NCBI GenBank assembly: GCA_007135805.1
Contig: SLID01000091.1
Coordinates: 1-52,775, forward strand
Direction: 5' to 3'
DNA: 52,775 nt
Source: Candidatus Omnitrophota bacterium
Lineage (GTDB): Bacteria > Omnitrophota > Gorgyraeia > Tantalellales > Tantalellaceae
The notes beneath the pieces were generated by a model. That model was not told the origin of the DNA, ran no database searches, and saw only the letters and a program-made list of their open reading frames with translations. Every line of letters begins with the position of its first letter. Positions within the stretch are counted from its first letter, which is position 1. Both the position numbers and the translations under genes were made by a program. This document shows positions 97 to 16,150 of this stretch, piece by piece.

Positions 97-1428
97 TCAA
101 AGGCCTTCTCGCCTTATTCTTCGCGACAGATAATAAACAGGGAAGCCTCCAGCCGTTATGGCCAGCCCCACAAGTGACGGATAAGGATGTGAAAAGAAAG
201 TTACAACCGCCAAAGCGGCGGATATTAAGGCGAACAAAACAGGTATAACAGGATAACCCCACGCGCTATAGGGCCTCACAAGGGCCGGATATTTCCGGCG
301 TAACACAAAAAGTCCCGCGGCCGCTAAAGCGAAAAATGACCATAGAAGAAACCCCGTGAAAAAGAGAAGCATGCCGAATGTGCCCCAGATAACAAGCGCT
401 ATTGACCATAAAGAAGTTACCATAACGGCAATATATGGCGCTCCCGAACTTTTTCCTATGCGGTTCATGCTCTTTAAAAGAGGGTTATCACACGCCACAG
501 CATATGTTATCCGGGACCCTGTCATTATCATGGCGTTTATCGCGGCCACTGAAGCGACCACAACCACCGCTTCCAGGGCTTTCCTGCCATACCTTCCGCA
601 AATTATCTGAAAAACCCGGGCCCCGATAAGCTCGGTCTTTTGTATCTCAGCAACCGGAAAAAGATACACATACAGTAAGTTCGCGGCCACATACAAAAAA
701 GTCACCGCCAATATCCCTGTAATGAGAGAAAAAGGCAGTGTTTTTCCGGCATTCTTCGTTTCCCCTGCCACGAAAACACTCTCATGCCACCCCCCGTAAG
801 TCCAGAGAACCGGGATCAAGGCAAGAAGGAACATAACGGGGCCGCCGCGCCCAGGAACCTCGCCGGAAGACCGTAAATGCGCGAAGTCTCCCGCTCCGGA
901 CATAAAACCCAGTATTATCATAGCTACGAGAGCGGCAACCGTGACCAGCACCAATACGCTCTGGACATTTTTACCGTACCTTAGTCCGGCCGCGTTAATG
1001 ATGCCAAAGGCGGCAATAAAGAAAACGGCCGTCCCCGTAACAAAAACGCTGCCGACGCCAAGAAAAGAAATAAGATGCTCTGAAAGTATATACGCGACCG
1101 CGGCTATTGAACCGGTCCGTATGACCAGTATCTCGGCCCAAGCGAAAAGGAACGCTGTCAACGAGCCGTAACTTTCCTTAAGATAAACGTATGTCCCCCC
1201 GGTTCTTGGAAATGACGCGGAAAGCTCGGCGTAGCACAATACCCCGGTAAGAGAAATAAATCCCCCCGCGGCCCATGCGAGAAGCATCATCCCGGGCGAC
1301 GACAAATATTGGGCCACTTCATAAGGGGTCCGGAAAATACCCACCCCTATAACTATGGCTATAACAATGGCGACAGAGTCCCATCGACCCAGAACTTTTT
1401 TCATGCCCGCTCTTTCCGCGTTATTCAC
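97..1428 (-). CDS. APC-family amino acid permease
   Basis: 443-aa strongly hydrophobic ORF with many TM-length segments. N-terminal helix IVIAIVIGVGIFRTP is typical of amino acid/polyamine/organocation permeases. Confidence 0.8.
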   Translation of the reverse strand: MNNAERAGMKKVLGRWDSVAIVIAIVIGVGIFRTPYEVAQYLSSPGMMLLAWAAGGFISLTGVLCYAELSASFPRTGGTYVYLKESYGSLTAFLFAWAEILVIRTGSIAAVAYILSEHLISFLGVGSVFVTGTAVFFIAAFGIINAAGLRYGKNVQSVLVLVTVAALVAMIILGFMSGAGDFAHLRSSGEVPGRGGPVMFLLALIPVLWTYGGWHESVFVAGETKNAGKTLPFSLITGILAVTFLYVAANLLYVYLFPVAEIQKTELIGARVFQIICGRYGRKALEAVVVVASVAAINAMIMTGSRITYAVACDNPLLKSMNRIGKSSGAPYIAVMVTSLWSIALVIWGTFGMLLFFTGFLLWSFFALAAAGLFVLRRKYPALVRPYSAWGYPVIPVLFALISAALAVVTFFSHPYPSLVGLAITAGGFPVYYLSRRIRREGL

Positions 1429-1481
1429 TTTCGCCTCTCCCCGCCTTTTTTGTCATATGCATTCCAATGTCATTCAGCTCA

Positions 1482-1838
1482 TCACGCCAAAAGAAGCATC
1501 ACACCCATAAGAAGGATAATAAACGCCCATATCCTGAAAAAACTGAGCGGCCTTTTTTCAAGCCATATCGATAACGTTTCAGAACTTTTTGTCGTTATCA
1601 GCATTATAACCTTTATCGTGATAATAAGGCCGGCGACTCCCGCTATCTTGGCGGGTATACCCTGCGCCCTAAAAGCGCTTCCCATAACAAGTACCGCGAA
1701 TACAAGGATAAACGCGTAAACGATAAATCTCATCCTGATATTTATCCGACGCCTCAGACGGTTCTTACACCCTTGCGGATTAATTATCCCCAGAACTCCG
1801 AATAATATGGCTATGACTCCCGCTATACTGGCAAGCAC
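1482..1838 (-). CDS. small integral membrane protein, function unknown
   Basis: 118-aa ORF with about 4 hydrophobic segments. GTG start is preceded by GGGAGG about 10 nt upstream. No recognisable motif. Confidence 0.5.
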   Translation of the reverse strand: MLASIAGVIAILFGVLGIINPQGCKNRLRRRINIRMRFIVYAFILVFAVLVMGSAFRAQGIPAKIAGVAGLIITIKVIMLITTKSSETLSIWLEKRPLSFFRIWAFIILLMGVMLLLA

Positions 1839-1927
1839 CGCTAATACACCTCCCTAAAGGGATCAATTTCGCCGCTACCGCGTCCCAAAACGCCAAACCG
1901 CGAAGACCTCTCAATTTCCTAAACCCG

Positions 1928-1936
1928 ATTATACCA
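1928..1936 (-). promoter_or_regulatory. extended -10 promoter element (TGGTATAAT on minus strand) upstream of the 118-aa membrane protein gene
   Basis: Minus strand reads ATGGTATAATC. A weak -35 (TTCATA) lies 17 nt upstream. The same 11-mer recurs at 11-21 and 18729-18739. Confidence 0.4.
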
Positions 1937-2047
1937 TTCTGGAACGTTTATATGAAGAGGATGTCCATTAAGATACGAAATAAACTCGAACTTTTTGGGA
2001 TTTAATTCGATGACATATTTCACCGCGATAAGAATAGACCGCGCTTA

Positions 2048-3322
2048 TCAATCATCAGTTCTTTCATCTATCGGAATATCCAGAAGCCTGGGAGCGGTAT
2101 ATCTTATACCGAGAAGACCTAATGGCGCGGTCAGGCATATAGATAGAACAGCTATCGACAGTATAACCGCTCCGTTATCCACCCCTGACAAAAGCGGGAT
2201 AGCTCCCAGGGCCGCTTGAACGGTCGCCTTCGGCACATAAGCAACGGCGCAGAAAACCCTTTCTTTTGAGCTGAATCTTGTCCCGAGTAAAGCGATAAAA
2301 ACACCGCAGGACCTGAAAATAATACCTGTCGCGATGATCAAAACTCCTATTAAGCCGGCTCTAATAGCGACATTTATATCGACCGCCATACCTATAAGTA
2401 CAAACAATATTATCTCGGCAAAGATCCATATTTTGGCCAGCTTTGAAGCCAGTTCATGGGCAACAATTTCACTTTTTTCAAGCAGCACAAATCCCATTGT
2501 CATTACCGCGAGGAGCGCCGCGATGTGTGTCCAATTGCCAAGTTGAACTAAAAACACGGAAAACCCCAGAAGAAGAATTATTTTTTCTGTAGCCCTTATC
2601 TTATTGAAATGTTTTTTAAAAAACCATGACAGAAAAAGACCCGCGCAAATACCGGTTATAACACCCAGTATAATAGCATAAGGGATCATAGCCGCCGACC
2701 TGAGGTAACTTACCTTGCCACCCAGGTAAATATTTAAAAACACCGTAAAAATTGATATTGCCGCTATATCGTCCAATGATGCCCCGGCTAATACCATTGT
2801 GGGAACTTCATTTCGTTTTCCATACCCCTGCTCCTTAAGGGTTAACATAGAGGGGACCACGACCGCGGGTGATACCGCCGCGAGAATAAAGCCCATCATA
2901 CCCGCCTCCGGCCATGAAAATGACAGCAAGTACCGGCTTGCGACCGCCACGATCACTCCCTCAAAAAGACACGGGATAAAAGCCATCTTGATCGCCGATC
3001 TTCCGACCCTTTGCAGAACATCTTTCTGTATGCCCAGTCCCGCCCTCAAAAGGATGGTAATAAGCGCCAATGATTTAAGAAAAGGGGCCATTTCCCAGAT
3101 AACCGGCGGGAAGTACTCCCTGAAGAAAAAAGCGAGTGTAATTCCCCATATCGTCATACCAAAAATAGACGGTAATTTAGCTTTTTGGGCAAGCCGCCCG
3201 CTAAACCATCCTCCGATCACTATTAAGACCACCAGTATGTTCAGTGACATAAAATACCCCTTCGCGCGGATATAAAAAAACCCAACAGAAAGAACTCCCA
3301 CCAAAATAACAGTAGGAGTCAT
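2048..3322 (-). CDS. cation:proton antiporter (Na+/H+ exchanger family)
   Basis: 424-aa polytopic membrane ORF. Overall layout and segments such as LAGASLDDIAAISIF and FVLIGMAVD resemble the sodium/hydrogen exchanger family. Confidence 0.75.
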   Translation of the reverse strand: MTPTVILVGVLSVGFFYIRAKGYFMSLNILVVLIVIGGWFSGRLAQKAKLPSIFGMTIWGITLAFFFREYFPPVIWEMAPFLKSLALITILLRAGLGIQKDVLQRVGRSAIKMAFIPCLFEGVIVAVASRYLLSFSWPEAGMMGFILAAVSPAVVVPSMLTLKEQGYGKRNEVPTMVLAGASLDDIAAISIFTVFLNIYLGGKVSYLRSAAMIPYAIILGVITGICAGLFLSWFFKKHFNKIRATEKIILLLGFSVFLVQLGNWTHIAALLAVMTMGFVLLEKSEIVAHELASKLAKIWIFAEIILFVLIGMAVDINVAIRAGLIGVLIIATGIIFRSCGVFIALLGTRFSSKERVFCAVAYVPKATVQAALGAIPLLSGVDNGAVILSIAVLSICLTAPLGLLGIRYTAPRLLDIPIDERTDD

Positions 3323-3420
3323 CAGCCTATTGGGCAGTTAAAGGCGAACTCCATCGCCTTATTGATAATATCACAAACTACCTGTCTCTTAAACAAAAAA
3401 TTCTAGTGGATCATGGGAAT

Positions 3421-3547
3421 AAATAATGGGGACGGTTCTTATTTTACGCTATTGAAACTACATTTGTTGCGTGAACACTCTTTTTTCTTTATGTGTGCAT
3501 TTACATCATATTTAGTTTCTTTATAAGGACTTGCCGAACACGTCTGA
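3421..3547 (+). repeat. 127-bp dispersed direct repeat, copy 1 (ends about 20 nt downstream of the giant gene stop)
   Basis: AAATAATGGGGACGGTTCTTATTTT...TTTATAAGGACTTGCCGAACACGTCTGA aligns over its full length, same orientation, with 12587-12713 and 16024-16150. Confidence 0.9.
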
Positions 3548-3568
3548 TTACATTTGTATAGGTCTTTG

Positions 3569-6500
3569 TTACGCCGCTTGCAACAGCCTTATGTATCCTA
3601 GATACCTTTCCCTTAACATCTCGTATAGTATTACCTCTACTACCGGCATGAAAACGATCATGTTATTTTCAATGTCAATTGTATCAACCAAAGATGACCC
3701 ACTTATGTCTACGCCTACCGACGCCTCTAAAGTAAGTGTTATCATCTCGATAATACTGATATATAATTGTTCATTCATGCACTCTTTATATTGCGCTCTC
3801 AATTGCGTAGCGTCTATTCCTGCAATAAACGGTCTTTCATAGCCCTTCCCATCTCTTATCACTGCAAAACTTTCAGCTTCAACCACACTCTTATCCGCAA
3901 GTATTATCACGTTGCCGAACGTTGTATCTTTCATGCCGGAACCTTGTTCTGATTTCATCGCGTCCAATACTTCCCCCGCCAAGGAATCTCCTTCGGACAG
4001 CACTACTTTTACATTTTTAAACCCAAGTTTTCTTAGAATATTTTCCAGCCCAGCCAATTCTCTTAAAAAAGGGGCCATAAGATTATGCTGCAAATCCCCT
4101 TTGCCCATTCCCGGTATCCAACTTGTATCAAGACCTATTACTATCCTCTGATCCATTCTTTTTGCCGAACGTGCTTTTACTATCGCCGAAGCCACTATGC
4201 TATCTATGTACAGTCTGCCTACGTTTGCTTTCATTATATCTATTTGACGTTTTATATCCTTTTCTTCACCTCGTTCTTCAATTAACCCCATCACCGCCAA
4301 AACTATTTTTTCAACTCCGTCTTCAGCTCGGATATATCCGCTTGTTGACACTTCATTATATGCTCTTATAACTTGGGCCTGTCGGTTATTAAGATAACTC
4401 TCATAAGATCTGTCGACGCCAACGGGAGTTAATCTGACCGCATAAAACATTTCTGAATATAATGGCCTTGTGAATTCTAAAGATCCAATGATTTCCCAAT
4501 CATAATCAACCACACCCCTTAGAGACTCCATAACATCTATTAGATTTTTTTCGTTATAATCATTTCTTGAAGAGTACCCTATTATTATCTCCCCACTACT
4601 GCTTAAATAGTGTGGTGCTTCTTGTAAAAAATAGCGCAGAAAACTCTGATCAGGATCGCTCAAGGCTTTTCCAAGCTCCCCCGACATAGTGCTTGCTCCC
4701 CAGGGCGGGTTCACTATAATTGTGTCAAATCTTTCCGATCCATCTAACGCCTCGAAAAACCTTCCCTCCATCCCATCGGTAACCTCTCTGATATCTACTT
4801 TATCCTCAACACCATATTTCCTGGTGTTTATCCGCGATAATTCGCAGGCATGTTTATTTATATCTACACCCACAACCTTATCAGCATTTCGTAATGCCGC
4901 AACTATACCCAAAACTCCCGTTCCTGAACCGATATCCAGAAATTTTTCCCCTTTCATCGATGGTATAATGCTTGCTAATAAACCTGTCATCTGATAATGA
5001 ATAACCGGATTAAACACCCTATTATCCAACATTAACCCGTCTATTTCCGGTATCCCGATATTCCGGCTTGTTAATTGCCCTCTCCTGTCAAAAATGGCCT
5101 CAAATGGTTCATTTTTTTCGTCCTCTAAAATCCTTGGTATTTCACTCAGACTAAATGAATTTGTTTGGACTGATAAAAGGACCTTCTTTACAGTTATCGA
5201 GCTTTTTTTATTGACATCAATTTCATTGAAACAAAATTTTGTGGCTTTCTGCAGATCATCGATGTTGGCATTATTGTGTGAGGGGTACTGATCGATAAAG
5301 ACCAGATCATCGTTCCCGGATTCTATGTCCCAGGAAAGCATCAATAAATATTTAATTGCTGCATCAAGGTCCATTTTTGACATCAATTCGTTATGCTCCG
5401 GGTCACTGATCTGTTCTAAACGTCTACTAAGGGCCCACAGCATTTTTGCTCCCTTCTCGCTGGTTCTCAATAAATCAATTTCCTGATTAACTGCCTCATA
5501 AGACGCACCTGTAAAACTTGCTATCTTTAAAACAACCTGATCAAAAACCTTTTCTCGTTGCTTATACATTGCATTTTGAGGGTCTGGGTACGTCTTCGAG
5601 ACCTTTTGCGCAGATGTTATATGCCGACACTCTGAGTGGCTCGGTTCGACTGCTCGCCACTTAATAAGTTCATTCCCCTTTGATTTCCAATATTCCTCAA
5701 TTTTAGGTTTGGGAATGCGTAATTTAGGGTTCCTGAACTTTATCTGTTCCTGTACTCGCATAAAAGTTCTATTCAATATATCTTTCCTGTCTTCCCCTGA
5801 AAGATCTGGTTCCAGATCAAGCCAATCCCTGTATTGATCCCAGTCTAAATACAATCCCTTTGCCGAATCCATCAGCACTTTTATCACTAATAGGTCGGAA
5901 TAGTAAAGCGCCATGGCTTCTCTGTATACATTATTGCTCGCCTTGCCATCTCCACGGCTATACTTAAGCAACTCGAATAATTCCTTGAGGTACCCCGCTC
6001 TTATTGTTAGGTGCTTGAAAAGAGCTGCTTCCAATTTGTGATTATCTTTCCCGCTGTATGCTGAAACCATGTCCCCTAAGAGATGATAGTACTGTCCCCT
6101 TAAGTTGCCCAACACATAATGCGCCTTGCTTTGGATCTCGCAACTTACTTCTCCTTCTCGTCGTATTTCTTGTATACCAAAAATTATAGGCTTGTTCCCG
6201 CTATGCCAGGCATCAAATATGCGCGACAACCTACCGACCCTTTGATCGATGAAGTCAGTCGCCCTAAAGGCCAATGCTTCTGTTCTTTCCTCTCCAAGTA
6301 TTCCTTCCTCCTTTGCAAGTGAAGTCAAAGGGCTTGTCTCATAAAAAGTCACTCTTGCAAAAGGAAAACGTATGTATTCTGACAGCCGTGCCGTTTCAAT
6401 AAATTTTATACCTTCTTCGAGCTCATCAAAAGACATGAAGGGATCAAAAAGAACCATTCCCAGTTTTATGTTCTCGATCCCCACTTCTTCCAAAACCCTT

Positions 6501-9500
6501 ATGGCTCCCTTAACTTCTTCTTTAGTTGTTCCCTTCCTGAACCTTGCGCTTTGTTTATCGCTACCGAAATCTCCTCCTATATTAACTACTTTTAAACCGG
6601 CTTCCTTCAGTAACTTCAGCGTTTCTATCTTAGCCTGTCTCACTTCCTCAGTATCTCCTTGTCGATAAACACTATGTACGCGTAGATAGGCAAAAAAGGT
6701 AAGGTTGTTTTTTGCCTCTATTTTCCTTCTTGCAAATTCTTTATATATGTCCAGATCGCTCGCTTTTTTTGCATTGGGTCCCATAAAATCAGAATCAGTA
6801 AATTCAAAATGCGTGGCCCCCATTTCTTGCAGAGCGTCTAACTCCACAAGCAGATCATCTAAAGATTTATGGCGCCATTCCCGTTTTTGACATGTCCACA
6901 TTGAACAAAATGTGCATTTCCCCCACGAACAGCCTCTGCTAAATTCGGCATACACAACACCTTTACGCTTTAATGTTTCTGTGGCACTCTGTCTGTCGGG
7001 TAACGGTAATCTTGCAAAATCTAATGTGTCACTCACAGGATTAAGGACAACTTGGCCACGGTCTTTATCCCAATATGCCGTGTTTGAAATTTCACCTATT
7101 TCCTTATCTCCTCTCACAAATGAAACAAGATCCCGGCTTGCTTCTTCTCCCTCTCCGACTACAACCATCACATCTTCATGTTTACGGACTATTTCCTCAT
7201 ATGCCGTGGCTCCGGTGACATTTCCCACGACGAACAATGTTCCTTCTTCTTTAAATGACTTGTATTTGTTCCGCTTTTCAAGTATCTCCATCATTTGCGC
7301 ATATGTCAGGACCTTAGCCGATAATCCAATTATCTCTGGCGGATCAACAGATAATCTTTGCAGCACCTCATCGACATTTCTTTCAAATTGCAGATCAACA
7401 AGATCTACCTCCACTTTGTCTTGAAATTGCTCTTTTAAGTAAGTCTTTATTACGCTTGGCCCCAGCGATTCTGCGTAAAAAATGTATCTATCGTGAAACA
7501 AACTTATAATCGTAAAGCGTATGGCCTGACTTTTGGATACCTGGGGTTGTTCCCTTACATCATGAACGCTGTCAGGTATTTCTATGTGGCTTCTGGGTTT
7601 TTGTGCCATTGTGCTTTTACCCTGCAGAGAAGACATCCTACTTATTGAAAGACCCAATATTAGAGCCAAATCGGCTGCCATTAACAATCGTCCAATAAGT
7701 AGCGGAAAACCCATTTCGACAAGCAGTATCCCCAATGCGAAGAGGACTCCGACCTGCATGAATTTGATCCCATCTCCTATTTTTCGGCCTATATTATCCA
7801 TAAACCGCCTTGACTCGATCTTAATCGCCTTCTTCACAGCTTCCCTATCTTCATCTGTTTGGAGCGCTTCTGCGATCGTTTCGAATGCTCGATTTTGCTC
7901 GGTTAGCATGCACATTGGAGGACACCGCTTTTCTAGACCTTCCTGCTTCATGAAATCGATCACATCACGCCTTCTCTGACTTTGCCATATCTCATCTAAG
8001 GTCTGTGATTTTAGATTACCGTACACAGCAGCCGGATCGAGTCCATGCTCAACGCAGTGATAAACATTCCCATCTGAGCCTATAAAAGTCAGCCAAGGGC
8101 AAGCCCGGCACTGGTTAAATCCCTTCTTTATTTCATCCATCGCTTCTATGCGTGTTTTTGGGTAGAAAATACTAAGGCCGTTTATCCTGTCTTCAATATA
8201 TGGCCTAATTCTAAACTCCAGATCATCCATTGCTGCCTGAAAAATATATGCCGGGAATTGCTCAGCATCGTATGTGAATCTATAATAATCATCGTAATAC
8301 CTATTAAGATCCGGATGTGTCCTTATGTATTCTAGACAATCTGCTGTTTTGGTGTTCTCTAACTGTACCCCTCTTAAATATCGAACCGCGGGTCTATACC
8401 AAATATGTTGTAAAGCCCCAGGATGCCTATCCGCAATAGCCTGTATGAGCCTTGCTATTTCCATAAGTTCTCTAAAATTTAACGGCGTTATTATCACCCC
8501 TACTCCAAGACCCAATTTTTTCCCAAACTTTTCTTTTGCCGCAGCTATCTTTTCTACGTTTTCCAATGCCCTGTAAAACATTGTCTCAGGAACACCAAAA
8601 AAGTGTTTATACGTTATGGGCCTTCCAGCATTAAAACTTATACGTATGAATTTAAGACCGACGTTGACCATACGTTCAGCTATTTGATCCGTGACCAAAT
8701 GAGCTTCAGTAAATAAGCCAGTGGCCAACCCTCTCCCACGCGAAGCATACTCAATGCCTTCGAACAAGTTTTTATTAAACAGGGGATCTCCTCCGCCCGT
8801 GAAAGTAATGCTTTGCACCCCGGCATCGGCCAATCTATCGATATAAAGTTTCATATCGTCAAAAGCCATCACATACCGGCTCTTATCTTTGCATCTCGAA
8901 ATTTCATCTTTGCTGCGCCCATAGGTGCAAGTAAGGCAATTGGAGGGGCATCTTTCTGAAGGCACGAACTGGGCATTTACCGGCATGATATCGTCAAATC
9001 TTCCCTGTGCTACCAATTCTGCTCTGTCTGGGAATGCCAACCATTTACCGGTTGACATGTTCCCGTAAGTAGAGGCATTGTGCAGCAACCCTCTGACTTG
9101 TTCCAGGGGATTTTCTTCGGGTTTTTGTTCTGTCTGAAGATCCCGAGTTTCTTGCCCCCTTACCCTCGTTTCATCCTCCCTGGGCGGCCTCCTATTGTCT
9201 TCGGGGTCATTTTGCCCTATCGTTTGGCCAATTAGCGTTTGCGTCAATCTGCAACCGTGAGCACATTCGGGCAGTGGATCGCTAAAAAAGTTAACCCTCT
9301 CTGATAGTAGCTCCTGAAGAGAGGTCTCTTCGATCCTGCCATATGAGTGTTCGGAGGCAGCTGCCTGTATTCTACACGGATAAATATTTCCATCAGCTCC
9401 GATCAAAGCGTGTCCTTTCGCCAAGGGACAACTATCTACTTTAGATACCTCCCTTAGGGGAAGCTTTGCTTCATATATTTCTTTCGGCAGAATAAATCCG

Positions 9501-12403
9501 GTGGTTTCTTCTCTATAATTTCCCAAAAATTCCCCAAAAGGTCTTCCGCTTTGTTTGATCGCGTTTATTCCTTCATGCCAATGCCTTTCGATTTCTTCAT
9601 CCGGATTCGACAAATGAAATGGATCTTCTGGAACAGCATCATCGGCTATATAAAGAAGCTTGAAACCAAATTTCTTTTTACGCAATGCGGGATCCTCCCT
9701 GCACATCCTATCCCAGTTCTTCCATAGCTCTTCCGCAATAACCAGAGCGTCCATAACATTGCTTTTATGGAACAAAAATGTTGTCCACTGTTCCTGAACA
9801 GTTCCTTCTTTGAAATATCGCCATATGTTAGTCCAAATTTGTTTAACGAATTCCGGCATATCCTCCCCATGATGCTGGAAATGCTCCCCCTTAAGACCGT
9901 GAGTGCTGACCCTTAAAATATCGATGTTGTCTTGAAGATCTTGCTCGAGATAGATTATGCCGTTAGTACATAGTGATATTTTTGCTAAGGGATTTTGCGT
10001 CCTAAGTTTTCTCATAAAATCATAAATGTCGTACCCCTCCCAGGAATACATGGAGGGTTCTCCTCCGCCTAAAACAAAAATGCTTTCCGGTTGCATTTCG
10101 GCGATCTTATCGATATTTTCGAAGAGCAGAGTCGCGCCCCCCTCATGGAGAGCTCCATACGGACATTTATAACAGCTTAGATTGCATTGATTGGTGGGAT
10201 GGACTTCGACAACTTTAACTTGTCTTGAAAAACCGGTAAGATCGCCGCTATGCGGTTTGGGCCCATACCCCTCGATTCTTTTCTTTATAACTTCACGATA
10301 GACATCATCAACCTTCCCATAAACAGACGTCCAGGAATATTCCTGCACGGTTTCGCTTATCCTCTTTCTCTCTTTATCGCTGACCTCTTCCGACAGCAAC
10401 GCTTTTATACCATTCTTAAAATCTTCGACATATCTTTTAGCTTGTTGTTCAGAAACTCCCTTTTCTGGTTTGCCTTGCGGGATCGGAGCCACTAAAACAG
10501 CATGCCCATCGGCAATAAGACCAGGCCTAACCAGCATTTGTGGCCCTCCGCGATCAGAGGCTATTACTCTTCGTCCACAAGCCAAGGCTTGCAACAATCC
10601 TAAACTAAATGGTTCGTTGTCTGAGGGCAATGCAAACACATCCGCAATATTCAGCAACTCTCCTACTTCTTCCATTGAAACCCATTTATTCAAAATTTTT
10701 ATATTTTCTTCCATCCCTTTGCTTGCGATGAAATCCCTGTATTCTGCTACTATCTCATCTGCCCCAGTACCTACAAATAAAGTTAGGACTTTTCCGGGAA
10801 TCTCGTTTGAATAATCCGCTGCAGCCTCCAGCAGATAGTCCAATTTTTTCCATCTAACATACCTCCCGACATAAAGCACTACCTTGTCATAATCTCCGTC
10901 TATGCCGTAACGATCTAGCAGCTGCTTTCTGTCAACATTTCGGGGATGGAATATTCGAGCATCTAACCCGTTCCCTATCATTTCTATCTGTTCATCTTTT
11001 AACCCATACATTTTTTGGGTTTCTTCACTGATGTCGTCAGATATGCTTAGCACCCTGTCAAGTCGTTTTATGGCAGGCCTAACCAAAGAGAGCATCTCCG
11101 GGGCTTCTTGCAGCATTTTCTGTTCTGTCCCGTGTGTCGTTGACACAATTGGTATCCACGGAGCGATCAGCTGTACCAGAGGGTTCAGCAAAAACAAATG
11201 ATTTGTATGAATTACATCTGGTTGATATTCCTCAATGAAGATCTTTAGACGGTGGTAGTATATTTCCAAAAACTCGACTAGATCTCTCTTTGACATGTCT
11301 TTGTAGCGGATAGGATTAAACGGCATGCCTGAAGAAAAAACAGGGATGGTCAGTTTTGTATCTGCTGTATCACTTTCAGAAAAGATTATCGTGTCGACAA
11401 GTGCTGTTTCTTCAAGTTTAAGATCTTTAGGCAAAAGTGGCTTCCTGTACGCAAGGGAGAGGGCCAAGCTTCCTCCCCGCCGCTGATGCTCCAATGCTAA
11501 AGATTCAACAACAACCCCGCTCCCGCAATTCATAGTGGGGCCGGCAATCATCATAAGCACTCGTGGAATAGGAGTTTGTGCAGCTCGTAAAGCCCATTCC
11601 TGGGCTTTCTCTGAGGCCCGTAAAAGAACATTGTCAACTGCCTGTCTGAAATTCTGGATCTGCCCCAGGACATTGTTTAAAATCCTTGTAGAAATGTTCC
11701 TGTCTGTAATTTTCAGCAAAAACGACGCTTTCTCTTCTTCCGTTCCTAACTCCTGATATCTTAAGATAAGTTCATATACGGCCGCGTCCCTTTCTTTTCC
11801 CTTTAGCTTTGGATCTGTGGCGATATTTAGCAGGGATTCAACTGTCTCATCTGTTCCGTCTTTTTCATGTGAATCTTGATCTTCAATCGCCGGTGTGTCT
11901 ATTTCAATTTTTTCTCTTTTGGGGGTTGTTTCCAATTCCTTTTGCGTAACATCCTCGTACCCTAAAACATTGCGTCCAACTTTAAAAGTCTTATCTCCAT
12001 CAGCACCTACGTAAGGAACATATGCTTCTCCTTTATCGAACCTTATTCCATCTATGTCTATGCCCTCTAAAACCTGGAATGTGCCTCGCCCAAGTTCTTT
12101 TCGTATAATTTGCGCAATATATTTTTCTCGTTCTTTGGCTACACTTTCAGGAACACTAAAAAAATAGTCTTGTATGTAGTTTAAAAAGAAAAAAAGTTCC
12201 GCTCTTTCCTGAAACGATAGTTCTGTTGTGAAATCCGGTGATAAGCTGAGATTGTTAATAAATATGCTTGGAACAGCAAGTGTGTCTGATCGGGGAGTTA
12301 GAGAAATAGTGGGATCGGCCCACGTTATATCCAACCAAAGAAGTAATATTGCCAGTAATGAGGCCGTTATTCGTAGAAAAGATTTTTTCACGGAAACATT
12401 CAT
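3569..12403 (-). CDS. giant multidomain protein (2,944 aa): N-terminal hydrophobic anchor, GT4 glycosyltransferase, 2x radical SAM with SPASM-like tails, TM hairpin, B12-type radical SAM, NPPW methyltransferase, unknown C-terminal module
   Basis: Single uninterrupted ORF in the six-frame track. Motifs read directly: EPFSLGLLQALACG (GT1/GT4 EX7E region), CNLSCYKC + GGGEP, CPSNCLTC + GGGDP, CSWGKCTFC, LDIGSGTG + NPPW. Confidence 0.85.
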   Translation of the reverse strand: MNVSVKKSFLRITASLLAILLLWLDITWADPTISLTPRSDTLAVPSIFINNLSLSPDFTTELSFQERAELFFFLNYIQDYFFSVPESVAKEREKYIAQIIRKELGRGTFQVLEGIDIDGIRFDKGEAYVPYVGADGDKTFKVGRNVLGYEDVTQKELETTPKREKIEIDTPAIEDQDSHEKDGTDETVESLLNIATDPKLKGKERDAAVYELILRYQELGTEEEKASFLLKITDRNISTRILNNVLGQIQNFRQAVDNVLLRASEKAQEWALRAAQTPIPRVLMMIAGPTMNCGSGVVVESLALEHQRRGGSLALSLAYRKPLLPKDLKLEETALVDTIIFSESDTADTKLTIPVFSSGMPFNPIRYKDMSKRDLVEFLEIYYHRLKIFIEEYQPDVIHTNHLFLLNPLVQLIAPWIPIVSTTHGTEQKMLQEAPEMLSLVRPAIKRLDRVLSISDDISEETQKMYGLKDEQIEMIGNGLDARIFHPRNVDRKQLLDRYGIDGDYDKVVLYVGRYVRWKKLDYLLEAAADYSNEIPGKVLTLFVGTGADEIVAEYRDFIASKGMEENIKILNKWVSMEEVGELLNIADVFALPSDNEPFSLGLLQALACGRRVIASDRGGPQMLVRPGLIADGHAVLVAPIPQGKPEKGVSEQQAKRYVEDFKNGIKALLSEEVSDKERKRISETVQEYSWTSVYGKVDDVYREVIKKRIEGYGPKPHSGDLTGFSRQVKVVEVHPTNQCNLSCYKCPYGALHEGGATLLFENIDKIAEMQPESIFVLGGGEPSMYSWEGYDIYDFMRKLRTQNPLAKISLCTNGIIYLEQDLQDNIDILRVSTHGLKGEHFQHHGEDMPEFVKQIWTNIWRYFKEGTVQEQWTTFLFHKSNVMDALVIAEELWKNWDRMCREDPALRKKKFGFKLLYIADDAVPEDPFHLSNPDEEIERHWHEGINAIKQSGRPFGEFLGNYREETTGFILPKEIYEAKLPLREVSKVDSCPLAKGHALIGADGNIYPCRIQAAASEHSYGRIEETSLQELLSERVNFFSDPLPECAHGCRLTQTLIGQTIGQNDPEDNRRPPREDETRVRGQETRDLQTEQKPEENPLEQVRGLLHNASTYGNMSTGKWLAFPDRAELVAQGRFDDIMPVNAQFVPSERCPSNCLTCTYGRSKDEISRCKDKSRYVMAFDDMKLYIDRLADAGVQSITFTGGGDPLFNKNLFEGIEYASRGRGLATGLFTEAHLVTDQIAERMVNVGLKFIRISFNAGRPITYKHFFGVPETMFYRALENVEKIAAAKEKFGKKLGLGVGVIITPLNFRELMEIARLIQAIADRHPGALQHIWYRPAVRYLRGVQLENTKTADCLEYIRTHPDLNRYYDDYYRFTYDAEQFPAYIFQAAMDDLEFRIRPYIEDRINGLSIFYPKTRIEAMDEIKKGFNQCRACPWLTFIGSDGNVYHCVEHGLDPAAVYGNLKSQTLDEIWQSQRRRDVIDFMKQEGLEKRCPPMCMLTEQNRAFETIAEALQTDEDREAVKKAIKIESRRFMDNIGRKIGDGIKFMQVGVLFALGILLVEMGFPLLIGRLLMAADLALILGLSISRMSSLQGKSTMAQKPRSHIEIPDSVHDVREQPQVSKSQAIRFTIISLFHDRYIFYAESLGPSVIKTYLKEQFQDKVEVDLVDLQFERNVDEVLQRLSVDPPEIIGLSAKVLTYAQMMEILEKRNKYKSFKEEGTLFVVGNVTGATAYEEIVRKHEDVMVVVGEGEEASRDLVSFVRGDKEIGEISNTAYWDKDRGQVVLNPVSDTLDFARLPLPDRQSATETLKRKGVVYAEFSRGCSWGKCTFCSMWTCQKREWRHKSLDDLLVELDALQEMGATHFEFTDSDFMGPNAKKASDLDIYKEFARRKIEAKNNLTFFAYLRVHSVYRQGDTEEVRQAKIETLKLLKEAGLKVVNIGGDFGSDKQSARFRKGTTKEEVKGAIRVLEEVGIENIKLGMVLFDPFMSFDELEEGIKFIETARLSEYIRFPFARVTFYETSPLTSLAKEEGILGEERTEALAFRATDFIDQRVGRLSRIFDAWHSGNKPIIFGIQEIRREGEVSCEIQSKAHYVLGNLRGQYYHLLGDMVSAYSGKDNHKLEAALFKHLTIRAGYLKELFELLKYSRGDGKASNNVYREAMALYYSDLLVIKVLMDSAKGLYLDWDQYRDWLDLEPDLSGEDRKDILNRTFMRVQEQIKFRNPKLRIPKPKIEEYWKSKGNELIKWRAVEPSHSECRHITSAQKVSKTYPDPQNAMYKQREKVFDQVVLKIASFTGASYEAVNQEIDLLRTSEKGAKMLWALSRRLEQISDPEHNELMSKMDLDAAIKYLLMLSWDIESGNDDLVFIDQYPSHNNANIDDLQKATKFCFNEIDVNKKSSITVKKVLLSVQTNSFSLSEIPRILEDEKNEPFEAIFDRRGQLTSRNIGIPEIDGLMLDNRVFNPVIHYQMTGLLASIIPSMKGEKFLDIGSGTGVLGIVAALRNADKVVGVDINKHACELSRINTRKYGVEDKVDIREVTDGMEGRFFEALDGSERFDTIIVNPPWGASTMSGELGKALSDPDQSFLRYFLQEAPHYLSSSGEIIIGYSSRNDYNEKNLIDVMESLRGVVDYDWEIIGSLEFTRPLYSEMFYAVRLTPVGVDRSYESYLNNRQAQVIRAYNEVSTSGYIRAEDGVEKIVLAVMGLIEERGEEKDIKRQIDIMKANVGRLYIDSIVASAIVKARSAKRMDQRIVIGLDTSWIPGMGKGDLQHNLMAPFLRELAGLENILRKLGFKNVKVVLSEGDSLAGEVLDAMKSEQGSGMKDTTFGNVIILADKSVVEAESFAVIRDGKGYERPFIAGIDATQLRAQYKECMNEQLYISIIEMITLTLEASVGVDISGSSLVDTIDIENNMIVFMPVVEVILYEMLRERYLGYIRLLQAA
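3572..4306 (-). other. giant protein C-terminal module (about aa 2700-2944), unknown function, apparently shared with the 852-aa protein
   Basis: Collinear by-eye matches to 47482-48210. Examples: NVIILADKSVVE/NTVTLLPAFGAE, RPFIAGIDA/TLIVPIAMG, YISIIEMITLTLEAS/SSSIFGFSMLNIARS, IVFMPVVEVILYEMLRE/IKLMPITPIDAEVLRS. Confidence 0.45.
4454..5056 (-). other. class I SAM-dependent methyltransferase domain (MTS/HemK-like, NPPW motif)
   Basis: Motif I FLDIGSGTGVLGIVAA (L2489 onward), VGVDIN, and motif IV IIVNPPWG (N2565; nt 4700-4711). Confidence 0.75.
6284..7522 (-). other. B12-binding-like Rossmann segment plus radical SAM core 3 (CX4CX2C)
   Basis: PEIIGLSAKV...LFVVGNVTGA precedes YAEFSRGCSWGKCTFCSMW (Cys 1825/1830/1833; nt 6905-6931). 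This layout is typical of class B (cobalamin-type) radical SAM enzymes. Confidence 0.6.
7640..7759 (-). other. internal hydrophobic hairpin (about 2 TM segments) splitting the giant protein into two halves
   Basis: MQVGVLFALGILLVEMGFPLLIGRLLMAADLALILGLSIS (about aa 1549-1588) sits between radical SAM module 2 and the B12-like segment. Confidence 0.6.
7889..8986 (-). other. radical SAM module 2 with SPASM/twitch-like C-terminal Cys motif
   Basis: CPSNCLTC (Cys 1152/1156/1159; nt 8927-8950), FTGGGDPLFN, then CRACPW..GSDGNVYHC..YGNL..LDEIW..CPPMC. Confidence 0.7.
9239..10222 (-). other. radical SAM module 1 with SPASM/twitch-like C-terminal Cys motif
   Basis: CNLSCYKC (Cys 740/744/747; nt 10163-10186), VLGGGEPSMY, then CPLAKG..GADGNIYPC..YGRIEE..LQELL..PECAHGC (Cys 1047/1051). 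Confidence 0.7.
10289..11560 (-). other. GT-B fold glycosyltransferase domain (GT4 / group 1-like)
   Basis: RVLMMIAGPTMNCGSGVVVESLA at about aa 281. C-terminal half has VGRYVRWKKLDYLLEA...FVGTG...FALPSDNEPFSLGLLQALACGRRVIASDRGGP. Confidence 0.7.
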
Positions 12404-12510
12404 GAAACCATTCTGCTTGTTTATTGATGCCTAAATAATACTATTTTATCATATAATACCCCATTTCTTAATCTTTATTTTCCTAACTTAGGGGTCGTCA
12501 TGGGGGATCT

Positions 12511-12713
12511 GGGAAACCAGCATTAAATGGCGGGCGTTAGTATGGGGGTTTTAGACATAAATTGGCGGGATTTTCGTTCTTTTACAAAATAATGGGGACG
12601 GTTCTTATTTTGTGACCTTGGACTTAAATTTGTTGCGTGAACACTCTCTCTTCTTTACGTGTGCATTTACATCATATTTCGTTTCTTTATAAGGACTTAC
12701 CCAACACGTCTGA
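12511..12713 (+). repeat. dispersed direct repeat, copy 2 (127-bp core 12587-12713 plus a left extension shared with copy 3)
   Basis: GGGAAACCAGCATTAAATGGCGGG...ATTTTCGTTCTTTT precedes the 127-bp core. Relative to copy 3 there is an extra segment of about 36 bp. A 15-nt unit CTGAACGCATTTTTT is tandemly repeated about 2.3x at 12710-12743. Confidence 0.9.
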
Positions 12714-12743
12714 ACGCATTTTTTCTGAACGCATTTTTTCTGA

Positions 12744-13421
12744 TTATGGCCAATGTTTCGGCACATCGATATCCACACCGGACTCGATCAAATGGCTTCT
12801 TTTCGCGGTATCAAGGATAACCTCGGCCACGTCCCGGGCGGGAATACCTTGAAAGCCCGACATACGTGTTTTGGTCAGCGGCGGGTTGATCGAGAAAATC
12901 TTTACAGCAGTTTCTTGGGCCAAGGCCTGGGTAAAGCCGCGCACACCGAATTTTGTGGCGCAATAAACGGTTAGGTTCTCATAGCCGGTCTTTCCTGAAC
13001 CGCTCGATATGTTGATTACAGTTTCTTTAGTGTGGGGCAAAGCCTCTTTGGTCATCTTAATAAGACCGGCCAAATTGACATTGATCTGCTGATCGATCTT
13101 TTTATGAGATTGGTTCTCAAGATGTTCCCATGTTATGCATCCGGCATTGTTTACCAGAACATCTATTGGTCCCATTTCACTAGCTGTTCGTTTTATAACC
13201 TCCTTAATGTTGGAAAGGTCCGCTATATTGAGCTTGAGCGTCATAACCCCGGGACTGCCCAGCTCTCTGCACTTCTCAGCTACTAGTTGAGCTGGTTTCT
13301 TATCCTGATAGTACGTTATTATTACTTTCGCCCCTTCTTTTGCAAATAAAAAAGCTGTTTCCCTCCCGATTCCTATGCTGGATCCGGTTATCAGAACAAT
13401 TTTACCTTTTAAACTCTCCAT
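12744..13421 (-). CDS. short-chain dehydrogenase/reductase (SDR) family oxidoreductase
   Basis: 225 aa. Cofactor motif ITGSSIGIGRE (TGxxxGxG), NNAG, and catalytic YCATK (YxxxK). Confidence 0.85.
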   Translation of the reverse strand: MESLKGKIVLITGSSIGIGRETAFLFAKEGAKVIITYYQDKKPAQLVAEKCRELGSPGVMTLKLNIADLSNIKEVIKRTASEMGPIDVLVNNAGCITWEHLENQSHKKIDQQINVNLAGLIKMTKEALPHTKETVINISSGSGKTGYENLTVYCATKFGVRGFTQALAQETAVKIFSINPPLTKTRMSGFQGIPARDVAEVILDTAKRSHLIESGVDIDVPKHWP

Positions 13422-13693
13422 TACGACCTTCCTTTTTTTCCTTTACGGCTCTTTCCACTTTAACGAGGGTTCTTTCGTTTTTGCCTTTTACCTCTTTGTC
13501 CTGTTCCAAACCCACGGTTATGATCTGATGCCCGTTTTTCTGCAGATATGTTTTGACCTTCCCCATTTTAGTGGACGTTATGGATACTTATGTTTTTCCC
13601 CGCCTTCGGCTTCAAAGCCAACTGCTGTTTACGTTCTCTCAGCAGTCGTGACACGTCCTTCTGTCGTCTGGTTATTGTGTGTTTGGTAATCAC

Positions 13694-13780
13694 CTATCTC
13701 CTACAACAAAGACATCCTTGGAGGGTAGTCATAAAAAAAAGTACCGCCAAAACAAAAAGTACTGAAACAGCTTTCTTCAT
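13694..13780 (-). CDS. 28-aa putative prelipoprotein/micropeptide (MKKAVSVLFVLAVLFFMTTLQGCLCCRR)
   Basis: ATG is preceded by GGAGGGGGAT. It has a hydrophobic signal-like segment and the lipobox-like LQGC. It falls below the 60-aa ORF cutoff. Confidence 0.3.
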   Translation of the reverse strand: MKKAVSVLFVLAVLFFMTTLQGCLCCRR

Positions 13781-13972
13781 ATCCCCCTCCCCGCTTCCAT
13801 AAACAAAAAGACAACCCCAGCCTAAACCAAGATTGCCTCCATATATTAAATCTTAATGTCCGCCACTATCCTGCTCCTCTGTGGCTAATCCTCCGTCTGC
13901 ATCATTGCAGATAACTCAATTGTACTACCCAGCTTACGCACTGGCAAGCTTTAACCTGCCGATGAAGAGCGT

Positions 13973-14030
13973 CAGGCACGAAACTGAAAGATCTTCAGAC
14001 TAGATCCCAAAAATAGGTGCGACCCCTTTT
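13973..14030 (+). repeat. 58-bp repeat, copy A (second repeat family)
   Basis: CAGGCACGAAACTGAAAGATCTTCAGACTAGATCCCAAAAATAGGTGCGACCCCTTTT matches 16513-16570 with 4 mismatches. A second short block, CGTTTTTAGAGAT, follows in both copies. Confidence 0.85.
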
Positions 14031-14158
14031 TCTTATTCGTTCTTATCTTTCGTTTTTAGAGATATGTTTCGTTTCTGCAAAAGAGCCGCCGGGATGGTCT
14101 CGGACTTTGCTAAGTCCAATTTGGAAAACTAATTTGTTACCAGGTTCTCCCTTGTAAA

Positions 14159-14184
14159 GCTTTCTTTACACATGTAAAGAAAGC
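14159..14184. promoter_or_regulatory. 26-bp palindrome GCTTTCTTTACA-CA-TGTAAAGAAAGC (core TTTACA-N2-TGTAAA)
   Basis: Perfect 12-bp arms. The same core palindrome recurs at 16733-16746 overlapping a promoter. It could also act as a hairpin 3' of the 14198 gene. Confidence 0.4.
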
Positions 14185-14197
14185 TGCCAGAACTCGT

Positions 14198-14794
14198 TTA
14201 TAACTCTTGAAGTTCATCAAAAAACCTTTCTGCCGAATCTATATTCTTCAAAGACTCATTCACTTCTTTTATGTCAAACTTCTCCGGATCAAATTCTTCA
14301 CCTATCCATTCTAACATAGATTCATACTCGGGATGTTTTGGGTTTGAAATCGCTTTTAAGAATTCTTCATAACCTGGAATTCCTCCGCAATCTTCCGGCG
14401 GACAACTACGTCTTCCATCAATACATACCGGATAGTATGCATTTTGGTCCGGCTCAATTATCTTTTCCAAAACCAATTCATGTTCCCACCCATCTCCCAT
14501 ATCATACTCATAGAGGAATTTTTTTATTTCTTTTTTTCCCAGATCTAATAGCCTTACTTCCCTTTCATCTATAGTTCTAGTGAAGCCTGGCTCCTCGTAC
14601 GGAACATTGTAAAACTTGTCTCCAACGTAAAATTGATGTAAATGCCCGCCTGCCCATCCCATTGTTTCCAAAATGATAGATGAGAGACGGTGCAGTGTGA
14701 TGCTGTTTTCAACCTGGATTCTACGCCAAATAGGAGGGCTACTGTCTTTTAGAATTATCTTGAACTGGCAAATGCTCTTTTCATTTTTCTTCAT
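14198..14794 (-). CDS. pRiA4b ORF-3-like (MM3350-like domain) protein
   Basis: 198 aa. The N-terminus FKIILKDSSPPIWRRIQVENSITLHRLSSIILETMGWAGGHLHQF is the hallmark opening of the plasmid pRiA4b ORF-3 family. Confidence 0.7.
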   Translation of the reverse strand: MKKNEKSICQFKIILKDSSPPIWRRIQVENSITLHRLSSIILETMGWAGGHLHQFYVGDKFYNVPYEEPGFTRTIDEREVRLLDLGKKEIKKFLYEYDMGDGWEHELVLEKIIEPDQNAYYPVCIDGRRSCPPEDCGGIPGYEEFLKAISNPKHPEYESMLEWIGEEFDPEKFDIKEVNESLKNIDSAERFFDELQEL

Positions 14795-14839
14795 ATCAAT
14801 TCCCTCCCCGAAAGATAACTGTCCCCCTCTTTATATTTG

Positions 14840-15869: not shown

Positions 15870-15890
15870 ATTGTTCCCTTTTTGAGAACA

Positions 15891-15919
15891 ATTGTACTCG
15901 TTTTGAGAACATATGTCAA
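15891..15919 (-). promoter_or_regulatory. sigma70-type promoter of the MNT-HEPN operon, flanked by direct repeats
   Basis: Minus strand reads TTGACA-17 nt-TACAAT. The 11-mer TGTTCTCAAAA occurs twice, within the spacer and just downstream of the -10 (candidate operator). Confidence 0.55.
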
Positions 15920-15982
15920 GTTGAAAGTCCGTCAAAACGGAGATGCCGTGAGATAATTACCTATAGGGTTTCTCGGTGTCCC

Positions 15983-16150
15983 GGGAAACCAGCATTAAAT
16001 GGCGGGATTTTCGTTCTTTTTCAAAATAATGGGGACGGTTCTTATTTTGCGCTATTGAGACTACATTTGTTGCGTAAGCACTCTCTCTTCTTTATATGTG
16101 CATTTACATCATATTTCGTTTCTTTATAAGGACTTGACCAACACGTCTGA
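15983..16150 (+). repeat. dispersed direct repeat, copy 3 (127-bp core 16024-16150 plus left extension)
   Basis: Full-length alignment with copies 1 and 2 in the same orientation. Confidence 0.9.

Follow-up and report, generated by a model that had tools for sequence, protein, structure and literature searches.

A three-copy, non-coding direct repeat between the gene blocks of a strain-variable accessory region of a probable Omnitrophota bacterium

Organization of the locus

The window, a DNA stretch of 52,775 nucleotides, comes from a soda-lake bacterium that probably belongs to the phylum Omnitrophota, whose members are uncultured and noted for giant genes. A strain-variable accessory region spans approximately 3.4–18.9 kb of the window and adjoins a tRNA-Lys gene, with a GC content of 37–45% in comparison to 47–51% in the flanks. 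In addition to the giant gene (Table 1), this region encodes HEPN/MNT, a second MNT, MazE-like, PRiA4_ORF3 and GIY-YIG proteins, the two MNT genes being only 26% identical. Pfam scans of the open reading frames in 1–19 kb identified no integrase (no Phage_integrase domain), other recombinase or transposase, and no reverse transcriptase (RT) domain was found in the reading frames of the region.

Self-comparison of the window showed that a 127-nt sequence occurs three times, always in direct orientation, at the positions listed in Table 1, which bears out the three direct copies claimed in an earlier note on this DNA. BLASTN aligned 16024–16150 to 3421–3547 at 92.1%, 12587–12713 to 3421–3547 at 87.7% and 15996–16156 to 12558–12719 at 90.8% identity, and ungapped pairwise identities of the core were 88.2, 92.1 and 88.2%. 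The copies have diverged by 8–12%, and their longest identical runs measure only 25–39 nt. The three-copy core alignment contains 107 invariant columns out of 127; the 20 variable sites are clustered, with a patch at core positions 25–40 (P = 0.0006), and the right 55 nt are nearly invariant. A 25-nt block, AAATAATGGGGACGGTTCTTATTTT, is invariant in all three copies, a run length that was reached in 17% of permutations and is not significant (P = 0.17). Two core 20–21-mers each matched the window exactly three times with up to three mismatches, where shuffled sequences predicted 0.00 matches.

Table 1. Coordinates of the repeat copies, their sub-modules and adjoining features in the window.
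Feature	Position	Strand	Remarks
Fluoride riboswitch	3306–3367	-	64.6 bits
Repeat copy 1, core only	3421–3547		21 nt downstream of the giant gene stop; followed after about 50 nt by the fluoride riboswitch and NhaP-type antiporter; every gene is on the minus strand
TTACAT, right of copy 1	3548–3553		6 nt common to a sediment-metagenome contig, which then diverges
Giant gene, 2944 aa	3569–12403	-	GT4 glycosyltransferase, three radical-SAM domains with B12-binding and SPASM, methyltransferase; the cargo that copies 1 and 2 enclose
Left extension of copy 2	12511–12586		Common to copy 3; contains an extra segment of about 35 nt (12535–12569)
Repeat copy 2, core	12587–12713		Separates the SDR stop from the predicted giant gene promoter; begins 183 nt upstream of the giant gene start
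Right-hand module, about 50 nt within core	12662–12714		The sole core part to recur elsewhere: two further contexts in related lake populations, at 82–88% identity
15-nt tandem TCTGAACGCATTTTT, about 2.3 units	12709–12743		Its start overlaps the final 5 nt of the core and its end touches the SDR stop codon (12744–12746)
Left extension of copy 3	15950–16023		Breakpoints recur at its left edge (15950); in other metagenomes this edge adjoins two further sequences
Repeat copy 3, core	16024–16150		Flanked by a 30-aa small ORF and the MNT-HEPN toxin-antitoxin operon
tRNA-Lys	18953–19028		End of the accessory region

Each copy separates a gene's stop codon from the predicted promoter of the gene that follows; these promoters are all minus-strand (3392–3365, 12471–12443 and 15919–15891), and copies 1 and 2 start 21–30 nt after a stop codon. 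The measured distances from the giant gene agree with the approximately 20 nt past its stop and 180 nt upstream of its start given previously. The left extension reported for copies 2 and 3 was likewise recovered, with 12511–12534 corresponding to 15983–16006 and 12563–12583 to 16000–16020, as were the internal extra segment of copy 2, framed by the direct repeat AA(A/T)TGGCGGG, and the tandem (12709–12728 = 12724–12743). The extra segment resembles what follows the extension module in related strains, so that copy 2 is a mosaic of the extension, a piece homologous to the follower of the extension in relatives and a 10-nt duplicated junction. Copy 3 sits inside a segment of approximately 354 nt (about 15921–16274) that is missing from related strains. 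A sediment-metagenome contig matches 3498–3553 with two mismatches before continuing into unlike sequence, and the unit of the copy 1 type may extend to 3553 on the strength of this match. The order extension-repeat, gene and D4 module occurs twice, at 12511–14185 and 15950–16746; D4a is the relic of a copied promoter/operator region, that of the second MNT gene, and no gene follows it.

Assembly soundness and copy number

The window is matched by two other assemblies of its sample. The three-copy arrangement was identical in an independent MEGAHIT contig (k = 141; 100% over all three copies). Logan contigs of the same run spanned copy 1, and their breaks were confined to 30–39-nt stretches common to copies 2 and 3. 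Depth was even, at approximately 8x, across the giant gene and its flanks. An assembly artefact from collapsed or duplicated contig ends, which the earlier note had named as grounds for dismissing the repeat, could appeal to the Logan breaks within copies 2 and 3, but is scarcely credible given the independent contig, the even depth, the divergence of the copies and their unique flanks.

Comparison of all contigs of the source metagenome with copy 3, at an identity of at least 80%, returned only the three known copies. The repeat is therefore a local feature and not a genome-wide family, and the many copies that were expected to be available for collection reduce to three members in this metagenome. 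Exact scans of 185,579 GTDB species genomes with a core 21-mer and 33-mer gave no matches; none were found in viral contigs, and none in plasmids and phages at blastn sensitivity. A literature search on the motif string returned irrelevant primer matches only. A scan of JGI metagenomes gave one match, on an unrelated high-GC contig (L003), where a hairpin unit that exactly matches the left 21 nt of the core is present five times, in both orientations; one inverted pair of these units falls within an open reading frame.

Coding potential, symmetry and regulatory signals

As previously claimed, a minus-strand frame (...SPYKETKYDVNAH...K, then stop) is open in all three copies without a start codon, and it had been suggested that the repeat could be a gene-3'-end relic. 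One plus-strand frame is just as open across the copies. No third-position bias was seen in any frame. In the minus-strand frame, codon positions 1/2/3 contain 5/9/6 of the variable sites, and 25 of the 33 differing codons are non-synonymous against 8 synonymous. A profile of the three minus-strand peptides found no true match among 1.84 billion representative proteins; the sole match was a repetitive protein, aligned in eight short stretches of its own tandem repeat, which we take as spurious. The repeat is non-coding, and an origin as a gene 3'-end, which had only the open frame in its favour, was rejected as very improbable. Two related guesses were also discarded: a relic of a TnpB C-terminus with omega-RNA, from a DVNAH likeness, showed no protein family and no codon bias, and a type I toxin in the plus-strand frame (MGINNGDGSYF...VSL) has a start codon in copy 1 only and 24 non-synonymous changes compared to 2 synonymous ones.

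The repeat has no terminal inverted repeats, as self reverse-complement local alignment scored 8–10 per copy in comparison to shuffle means of 11.5–12.1, and near the copy ends only a weak 8-nt GACG(T)GTTC match was seen. No target-site duplication was apparent in the directly read flanks of the three copies, where only TCAGA recurs, in the tandem of copy 2. No dyad symmetry was found beyond an 8-bp A/T stem, which rules out readings as an attC site, an ERIC element or a palindrome. A template/variable repeat pair of a diversity-generating retroelement was rejected as well, as all four bases are affected in each copy at the 20 variable sites and the reading frames of the region contain no RT.

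Rfam 15 gave nothing over the repeat, either at the gathering threshold for the window or at E values up to 10 for copies 2 and 3. Fold-energy z-scores ranged from -1.9 to +0.6, copies 2 and 3 being no better than shuffles, and no compensatory pairs were found on either strand, with some pairs broken, although three sequences are too few to decide. The interior of the repeat holds no terminator-like hairpin with a T-run and no promoter that passes the scan. A candidate outward promoter on the plus strand (TTTACA-16 nt-TATAAG) has both hexamers in invariant blocks and a -10 element without the conserved final T. No RNA run contained the locus.

Structural variation in related populations

The 31-mers of the giant gene occurred in no run other than the source run and one from a second sample, in comparison to 6 to 9 runs each for words from the SDR and toxin-antitoxin regions. 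Related populations lack the giant gene and are empty or different at each of the three repeat sites, and fragments of the repeat adjoin other sequences there with sharp, recurring boundaries. Structural-variant breakpoints fall at module edges, namely 15950 (five runs, two contexts), 16005/16006, 12713/12714 (four runs, two contexts) and 3553; homology of the right-hand module stops sharply at 12713/12714. A joint of 14035 to 15950 in related populations removes PRiA4-HEPN-MNT. Divergence from related genomes starts at approximately 12737 and 3415, outside copies 2 and 1 respectively, and relatives with the SDR gene at approximately 97% nucleotide identity carry unrelated sequence from 7 nt past the SDR stop.

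Relatives without the giant gene retain no repeat downstream of SDR and carry none at the copy 3 site, and more distant relatives have none upstream of the riboswitch. Contigs of all runs contained no hybrid copy 1/copy 2 or copy 2/copy 3 junctions and no circle junctions. The closest assembled relatives of the SDR, antiporter and giant proteins are too distant, with 61–88% amino acid identity, their neighbours are not conserved and none has the repeat; no repeat flanks the sole architectural homologue of the giant gene, at 61% identity. Exact protein matches for HEPN, the small ORF and SDR came from the source sample only. The earlier proposal that the giant gene is a repeat-flanked unit of gain and loss therefore holds in part: the gene is bracketed by the repeat and strain-variable, but the repeats as the means of its gain or loss are not supported, given the lack of hybrid contig junctions, the SDR-side empty site without a copy and the homologue without a repeat.

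Origin of the repeat

The seams of the region follow the order antiporter / giant gene / SDR...PRiA4-HEPN-MNT / small ORF..., and the blocks between them vary independently. Our tentative interpretation, which we hold at somewhat below an even chance, is that the repeat is junction DNA that was distributed by the recombination which shuffles gene modules and that can itself serve such recombination. The copies would have been spread by the recombination events that brought the blocks in, with every arriving segment either bringing a copy along or recombining at one in a Campbell-type or cassette-like accretion, which would leave direct repeats around each insert, and the copies and sub-modules may remain substrates for further shuffling. 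In favour of this interpretation are the position of the three direct copies at block boundaries with sharp homology edges, their confinement to this locus, the low-GC, toxin-antitoxin-rich character of the region beside tRNA-Lys, the narrower distribution of the giant gene 31-mers, the breakpoints on module edges and the mosaic make-up of copy 2. A second pair of relic modules in the region, at 13971–14185 and 16511–16746, shows that intergenic DNA was copied there earlier. The recombination mechanism and any activity at the present day are inferred. It is important to note that nothing shows that the repeats mediate movement of the giant gene; the copies look like recombination seams. Several observations count against this interpretation: simple repeat-by-repeat deletion or insertion should leave one copy and the empty sites, where readable beside the SDR gene, have none, the copies are poor substrates for homologous recombination because of their short identical runs, the region encodes no integrase or recombinase, the contigs show no hybrid or circle junction, and the one homologue of the giant gene lacks an adjacent repeat.

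Alternatively, the repeat may be a small non-autonomous mobile or mosaic intergenic element of the MITE, BIME, BOX or ERIC kind that is moved in trans by an enzyme encoded elsewhere, with two copies able to mobilize the DNA between them as in a composite transposon. The different contexts and sharp ends of the repeat pieces among closely related populations, variable DNA that seems to include the flanking copies and the fivefold hairpin unit of L003 in the left 21 nt of the core are consistent with such an element. We nevertheless consider it doubtful, as terminal inverted repeats and target-site duplications are missing at every copy, no transposase lies nearby and the sequence is limited to three copies in the source metagenome, without an exact match in the GTDB species genomes. 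A cis-acting regulatory element or small RNA between co-directional genes, either as a 3'-UTR or insulator after the upstream gene or as an outward plus-strand promoter, has a similarly small though real chance of being correct. The placement of every copy between a stop codon and the next predicted promoter and the confinement of variation to one patch would fit this role, as would the right-hand 50 nt being the part conserved in relatives, but the Rfam searches, fold energies, lack of compensatory pairs, absence of a terminator or promoter passing the scan, imperfect -10 candidate and lack of RNA runs do not.

Functionless relics of old local segmental duplications, in which the intervening genes were later replaced, appear unlikely. 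The twice-repeated order of extension-repeat, gene and D4 module, the geneless D4a and the divergence of the copies point in this direction; however, the gene content between the copies is entirely different, the MNT genes share little identity, and simple in-place decay does not explain the presence of repeat modules in other contexts in relatives. A further interpretation, to which we give quite a low likelihood, would make the repeat the recognition or crossover site used by recombination machinery whose genes lie elsewhere in the genome. Such machinery would stack integrase-less modules, up to the 8.8-kb giant gene, in tandem in Omnitrophota, and the invariant hairpin block of the repeat, CAAAATAA-TGGGGACGGTTC-TTATTTTG, would be the functional core. 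The 13-nt loop of the repeat hairpin, AAGAACCGTCCCC, is found with a different stem as the unit of a REP-like element present five times on L003, and this common loop would, if the crossover-site reading were true, point to a widely distributed and undescribed hairpin-recognizing enzyme.

The main value of this analysis is that it excludes readings of the repeat as a coding relic, a known RNA or an artefact and counts against a MITE. The multi-enzyme giant gene is strain-specific and lies in an accessory region subject to shuffling, whose seams are marked by repeat modules; were the repeats shown to be active recombination sites, they would offer a way into how large genes move in Omnitrophota.

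Comparison with known repeat systems

On present evidence, the repeats belong to a familiar general kind of DNA, namely local junction sequence of low copy number. Direct att-type repeats surround tandemly accreted integrative elements, among them the integrase-less cis-mobilizable elements (CIMEs) described in Streptococcus thermophilus. Here too, three direct repeats delimit two adjacent low-GC accessory blocks without an integrase beside a tRNA gene. In contrast to att sites, the repeat is unrelated to the tRNA-Lys 3' end (self-BLAST of the window showed no similarity to the tRNA gene or its flank), no integrase lies in the window, the copies are only 88–92% identical with an invariant block that is not significant, and no single-copy empty site was found. 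Integron attC sites, such as the 123–126-bp repeats of Vibrio cholerae, separate cassettes, many of which encode toxin-antitoxin systems. Our repeat is of similar length, direct, positioned just after the stop codons of co-oriented genes and associated with toxin-antitoxin cargo, but it has no properly placed RYYYAAC/GTTRRRY pair, no overall imperfect palindrome and no intI; a GTTGGGT/ACCCAAC box fits copy 2 only, at the wrong end and with no partner box at the other. Moreover, the "cassettes" measure 3.3 and 8.9 kb and have their own promoters.

ERIC/IRU, BIME and BOX elements of enterobacteria and pneumococci are palindromic and number tens to hundreds of copies genome-wide. The repeat resembles them as a non-coding sequence of approximately 127 nt between co-transcribed or co-oriented genes with variously combined sub-modules, yet it differs in its three copies within 13 kb and its lack of dyad symmetry. 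MITE-flanked composites such as integron mobilization units are similar in that two short non-coding repeats bracket presence/absence cargo and both repeats appear to be variable DNA, unlike the present copies in terminal inverted repeats, target-site duplication and orientation, our copies being direct; we know of no matching transposase.

The repeat and its gene setting

The repeat finder returned a single three-copy direct family in the window (3390-3553, 12556-12719 and 15993-16156), and the repeat that had been noticed earlier by reading was borne out in every detail by the finder, by alignment and by self-BLAST. Its distances to the giant gene were also right, with copy 1 lying 21 nt past the giant-gene stop and copy 2 lying 183 nt ahead of its start. 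Ungapped identity of the 127-nt core was 88.2% for copies 1 and 2, 92.1% for copies 1 and 3 and 88.2% for copies 2 and 3, with 107/127 columns invariant across the three copies and longest identical runs of 25, 25 and 39 nt. Two core 20-21-mers had exactly three matches each at up to 3 mismatches and 0 in shuffles. Copies 2 and 3 have a left extension in common (12511-12534 = 15983-16006; 12563-12583 = 16000-16020) as well as 6 right-hand nt, ACGCAT. The extension of copy 2 includes about 35 additional nt edged by the direct repeat AA(A/T)TGGCGGG, and this copy also carries a 15-nt tandem that reuses the final 5 nt of the core and reaches the SDR stop codon.

Features of the repeat-bearing region
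Feature	Position	Strand or orientation	Remark
Amino-acid permease	within 97-15869	minus	
NhaP-type Na+/H+ exchanger	within 97-15869	minus	behind fluoride riboswitch
Fluoride riboswitch	3306-3367	minus	64.6 bits
Promoter-like sites next to copies	3392-3365, 12471-12443, 15919-15891		predicted
Common core, copy 1	3421-3547	direct	reading, alignment, self-BLAST of window
Giant gene, 2944 aa	3569-12403	minus	
Common core, copy 2	12587-12713	direct	reading, alignment, self-BLAST of window
SDR	within 97-15869	minus	
D4, left copy	13971-14185		
PRiA4_ORF3	within 97-15869	minus	
HEPN and MNT	within 97-15869	minus	
Common core, copy 3	16024-16150	direct	reading, alignment, self-BLAST of window
30-aa lysine-rich ORF (MGDKGQKDKDKLKKQAKSAKNKKIDSKKNK)	16297-16389	minus	called as gene in the MEGAHIT contig L001
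D4, right copy	16511-16746		
Second MNT	16778-17437	plus	
MazE-like gene, 100-aa ORF, GIY-YIG gene	right of 30-aa ORF, before tRNA-Lys		
tRNA-Lys	18953-19028		

All genes between 97 and 15869 are on the minus strand and every copy of the repeat, in gene orientation, stands after the stop of one gene and before the predicted promoter of the next. GC content is 37-45% over 3-19 kb in comparison to 47-51% on each side, and chromosomal sequence makes up the remainder of the window (DnaB, BamA, GlmU, LpxB, MsbA). Among named homologues, the best matches to the SDR (62 and 61% identity) and to the antiporter (67-69%) come from Candidatus Omnitrophota MAGs. Neither an integrase, a transposase nor a reverse transcriptase turned up among the ORFs of the region. 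The riboswitch precedes an exchanger and not crcB or eriC-F, and this pair is kept in relatives (84-88% amino acid identity) with different genes on both sides. The 30-aa ORF has a strong Shine-Dalgarno sequence, and a further contig of this metagenome repeats the first 32 nt of the ORF.

In the giant protein a GT4 glycosyltransferase is combined with a class I methyltransferase and with three radical-SAM domains, of which one has B12-binding and another SPASM. Its architecture recurs in a single further protein among 5.8 billion clustered ones, P0122 (61% identity, 2884 aa), and the next match covers the GT4 part alone; no repeat lies next to the P0122 gene on its 11.8-kb contig.

A second repeat pair, D4, consists of a 61-nt module (93% identity) followed by CGTTTTTAGAGAT and then by the palindrome TTTACACATGTAAAG. 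The right copy forms the promoter/operator region of the second MNT gene, and the left copy is therefore a relic, as it has no gene behind it.

Assembly integrity and copy number

The source of the locus is a soda-lake metagenome. An assembly artefact, a doubt raised in the earlier note, was ruled out by an independent 27.5-kb MEGAHIT contig of the same sample (100% identical across all three copies and flanks), by Logan contigs of the source run, by even depth and by unique flanks. The Logan contigs span copy 1 and break only within stretches common to copies 2 and 3, where their ends overlap consistently, and word depth in this run is about 8 all along 2.5-17.5 kb. Since the copies differ at intervals of at most 39 nt and have unique flanks, they can be placed by reads.

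A dispersed repeat family was also rejected, as comparison of all source-metagenome contigs with copy 3 at at least 80% identity recovered the known three copies only. Exact 21- and 33-mers had 0 matches in 185,579 GTDB species genomes and 0 in viral contigs, and blastn gave no match to the repeat in plasmids and phages.

Variation within the core

Variable sites are clustered, with 10 of the 20 falling within core positions 25-40 (P = 0.0006), mostly due to differences in copy 2. The 25-nt invariant left block, which alone is not significant (P = 0.17), folds as a small A/T hairpin, CAAAATAA-TGGGGACGGTTC-TTATTTTG in copy 2.

The earlier suggestion of a gene 3'-end relic was not sustained. Variable sites in the proposed minus-strand frame fell 5/9/6 on codon positions 1/2/3 (n=20), differing codons were non-synonymous in 25 cases and synonymous in 8, and a plus-strand frame is equally open. 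A profile built from the 39-aa peptides of the three copies gave one match among 1.84 billion representative proteins, to 8 short stretches of a repetitive protein's own tandem repeat, which was taken as spurious. The codon-position counts, the non-synonymous excess and this single spurious match rule out a coding relic.

The hairpin-block 21-mer has a single metagenome match, an exact one on an unrelated high-GC contig (L003). A 21-nt unit, AACAYAAWAAGAACCGTCCCC, is present there in five copies and both orientations (731-791 and 2063-2260), with one inverted AACAYAAWAAGAACCGTCCCC pair in frame within a MobA-like NTP-transferase ORF. The loop is identical to that of the repeat hairpin and the stem is different and shifted by one base, a likeness that may stem from common ancestry or from chance. 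This unit looks like a REP/RPE-type palindromic element.

Related populations

The most informative evidence came from 31-mer indexing and from contigs aligned to the window. Words of the giant gene were confined to two runs, the source run (0.97) and one from a second salt-lake sample (0.06), in comparison to six runs for the SDR region and nine for the toxin-antitoxin region. Lake-water runs (X2-X6) carried the flanking genes at 85-97% nucleotide identity and no giant-gene pieces. In these relatives the sequence is unrelated from 7 nt past the SDR stop, so copy 2 is absent there, and almost nothing separates the small ORF from the MNT promoter, about 354 nt with copy 3 being absent as well. 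Homology to an antiporter relative (88% amino acid identity) stops where copy 1 starts, which is of little information as neighbouring genes are not conserved on either side. Five Logan contigs of this relative from five runs (L005-L009) share exactly one start position, 371 nt ahead of the gene, which suggests a repeat or strain breakpoint in that population too.

Parts of the repeat were found in other settings. The right-hand 50 nt (12662-12714) occur at 82-88% identity in two other contexts in lake-water populations, with a sharp end at 12713/12714, and for the left extension (15950-16005) one other context was found, in which sequence resembling the additional segment of copy 2 follows. 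In the sediment metagenome X9, a right end like that of copy 1 (3498-3553, 96% identity) stands in a further context, and the toxin-antitoxin region has several structural variants. One of these, a joint (14035->15950), lacks PRiA4-HEPN-MNT, precisely the stretch from the D4 module to the extension. Further joints co-exist there over 13.5-17.5 kb (14793->15295, 15695->15871, and 17049 back to 14844), and the HEPN/MNT/PRiA4 variants have a summed depth of 10-25. The toxin-antitoxin patch at 13.5-17.5 kb is a rearrangement hotspot.

Origin of the repeats

The region fits best as modular accessory DNA, with intergenic parts built of a few short modules that were repeatedly re-joined. Of these modules, the core with its extension is the largest, and D4 is a second example. 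The repeat represents a new sequence family whose general kind, the low-copy junction repeats of genomic islands, is known. Direct repeats around the blocks and the copy 2 scar favour recombination seams, a reading that we hold tentatively as a possible one. A circular segment would integrate through sequence in common, giving direct repeats around each block, and the scar would reflect recombination between two different extension-bearing junctions. Against this reading, the region has no recombinase, identical tracts are short, and genomes without the giant gene keep no repeat copy at readable sites. A simple repeat-by-repeat event should leave one copy, so these empty sites speak against its simple form. 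The proposal in the earlier note that the giant gene is variable DNA bracketed by repeats holds, given its words in two runs only, but gain or loss through the repeats is unproven, and its simple form has against it the empty sites and the contigs of the runs, in which no hybrid or circle junctions were seen.

A trans-mobilised mosaic element is an unlikely explanation; no target-site duplication flanks any of the three copies, and self reverse-complement alignment, scoring below shuffles, gave no palindrome or terminal inverted repeats. It is also improbable that the repeat is a cis-regulatory or small-RNA element, for which the invariant plus-strand TTTACA-16-TATAAG or a role as 3'-UTR or insulator would be an example. 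Fold z-scores ranged from -1.9 to +0.6, no Rfam family matched the repeat, either at the gathering threshold or with E allowed up to 10, and consensus folds of both strands, built from three sequences only, had no compensatory pairs. Inert relics of old duplications are quite unlikely, and a system that stacks modules without an integrase and takes the hairpin block as its site is very doubtful. Two tandem duplications, each including the terminator hairpin of its tRNA, were observed directly after tRNA 3' ends, at 18735-18940 after tRNA-Lys (103 nt, 72% identity) and at 47180-47377 after tRNA-Glu (99 nt, 99% identity).
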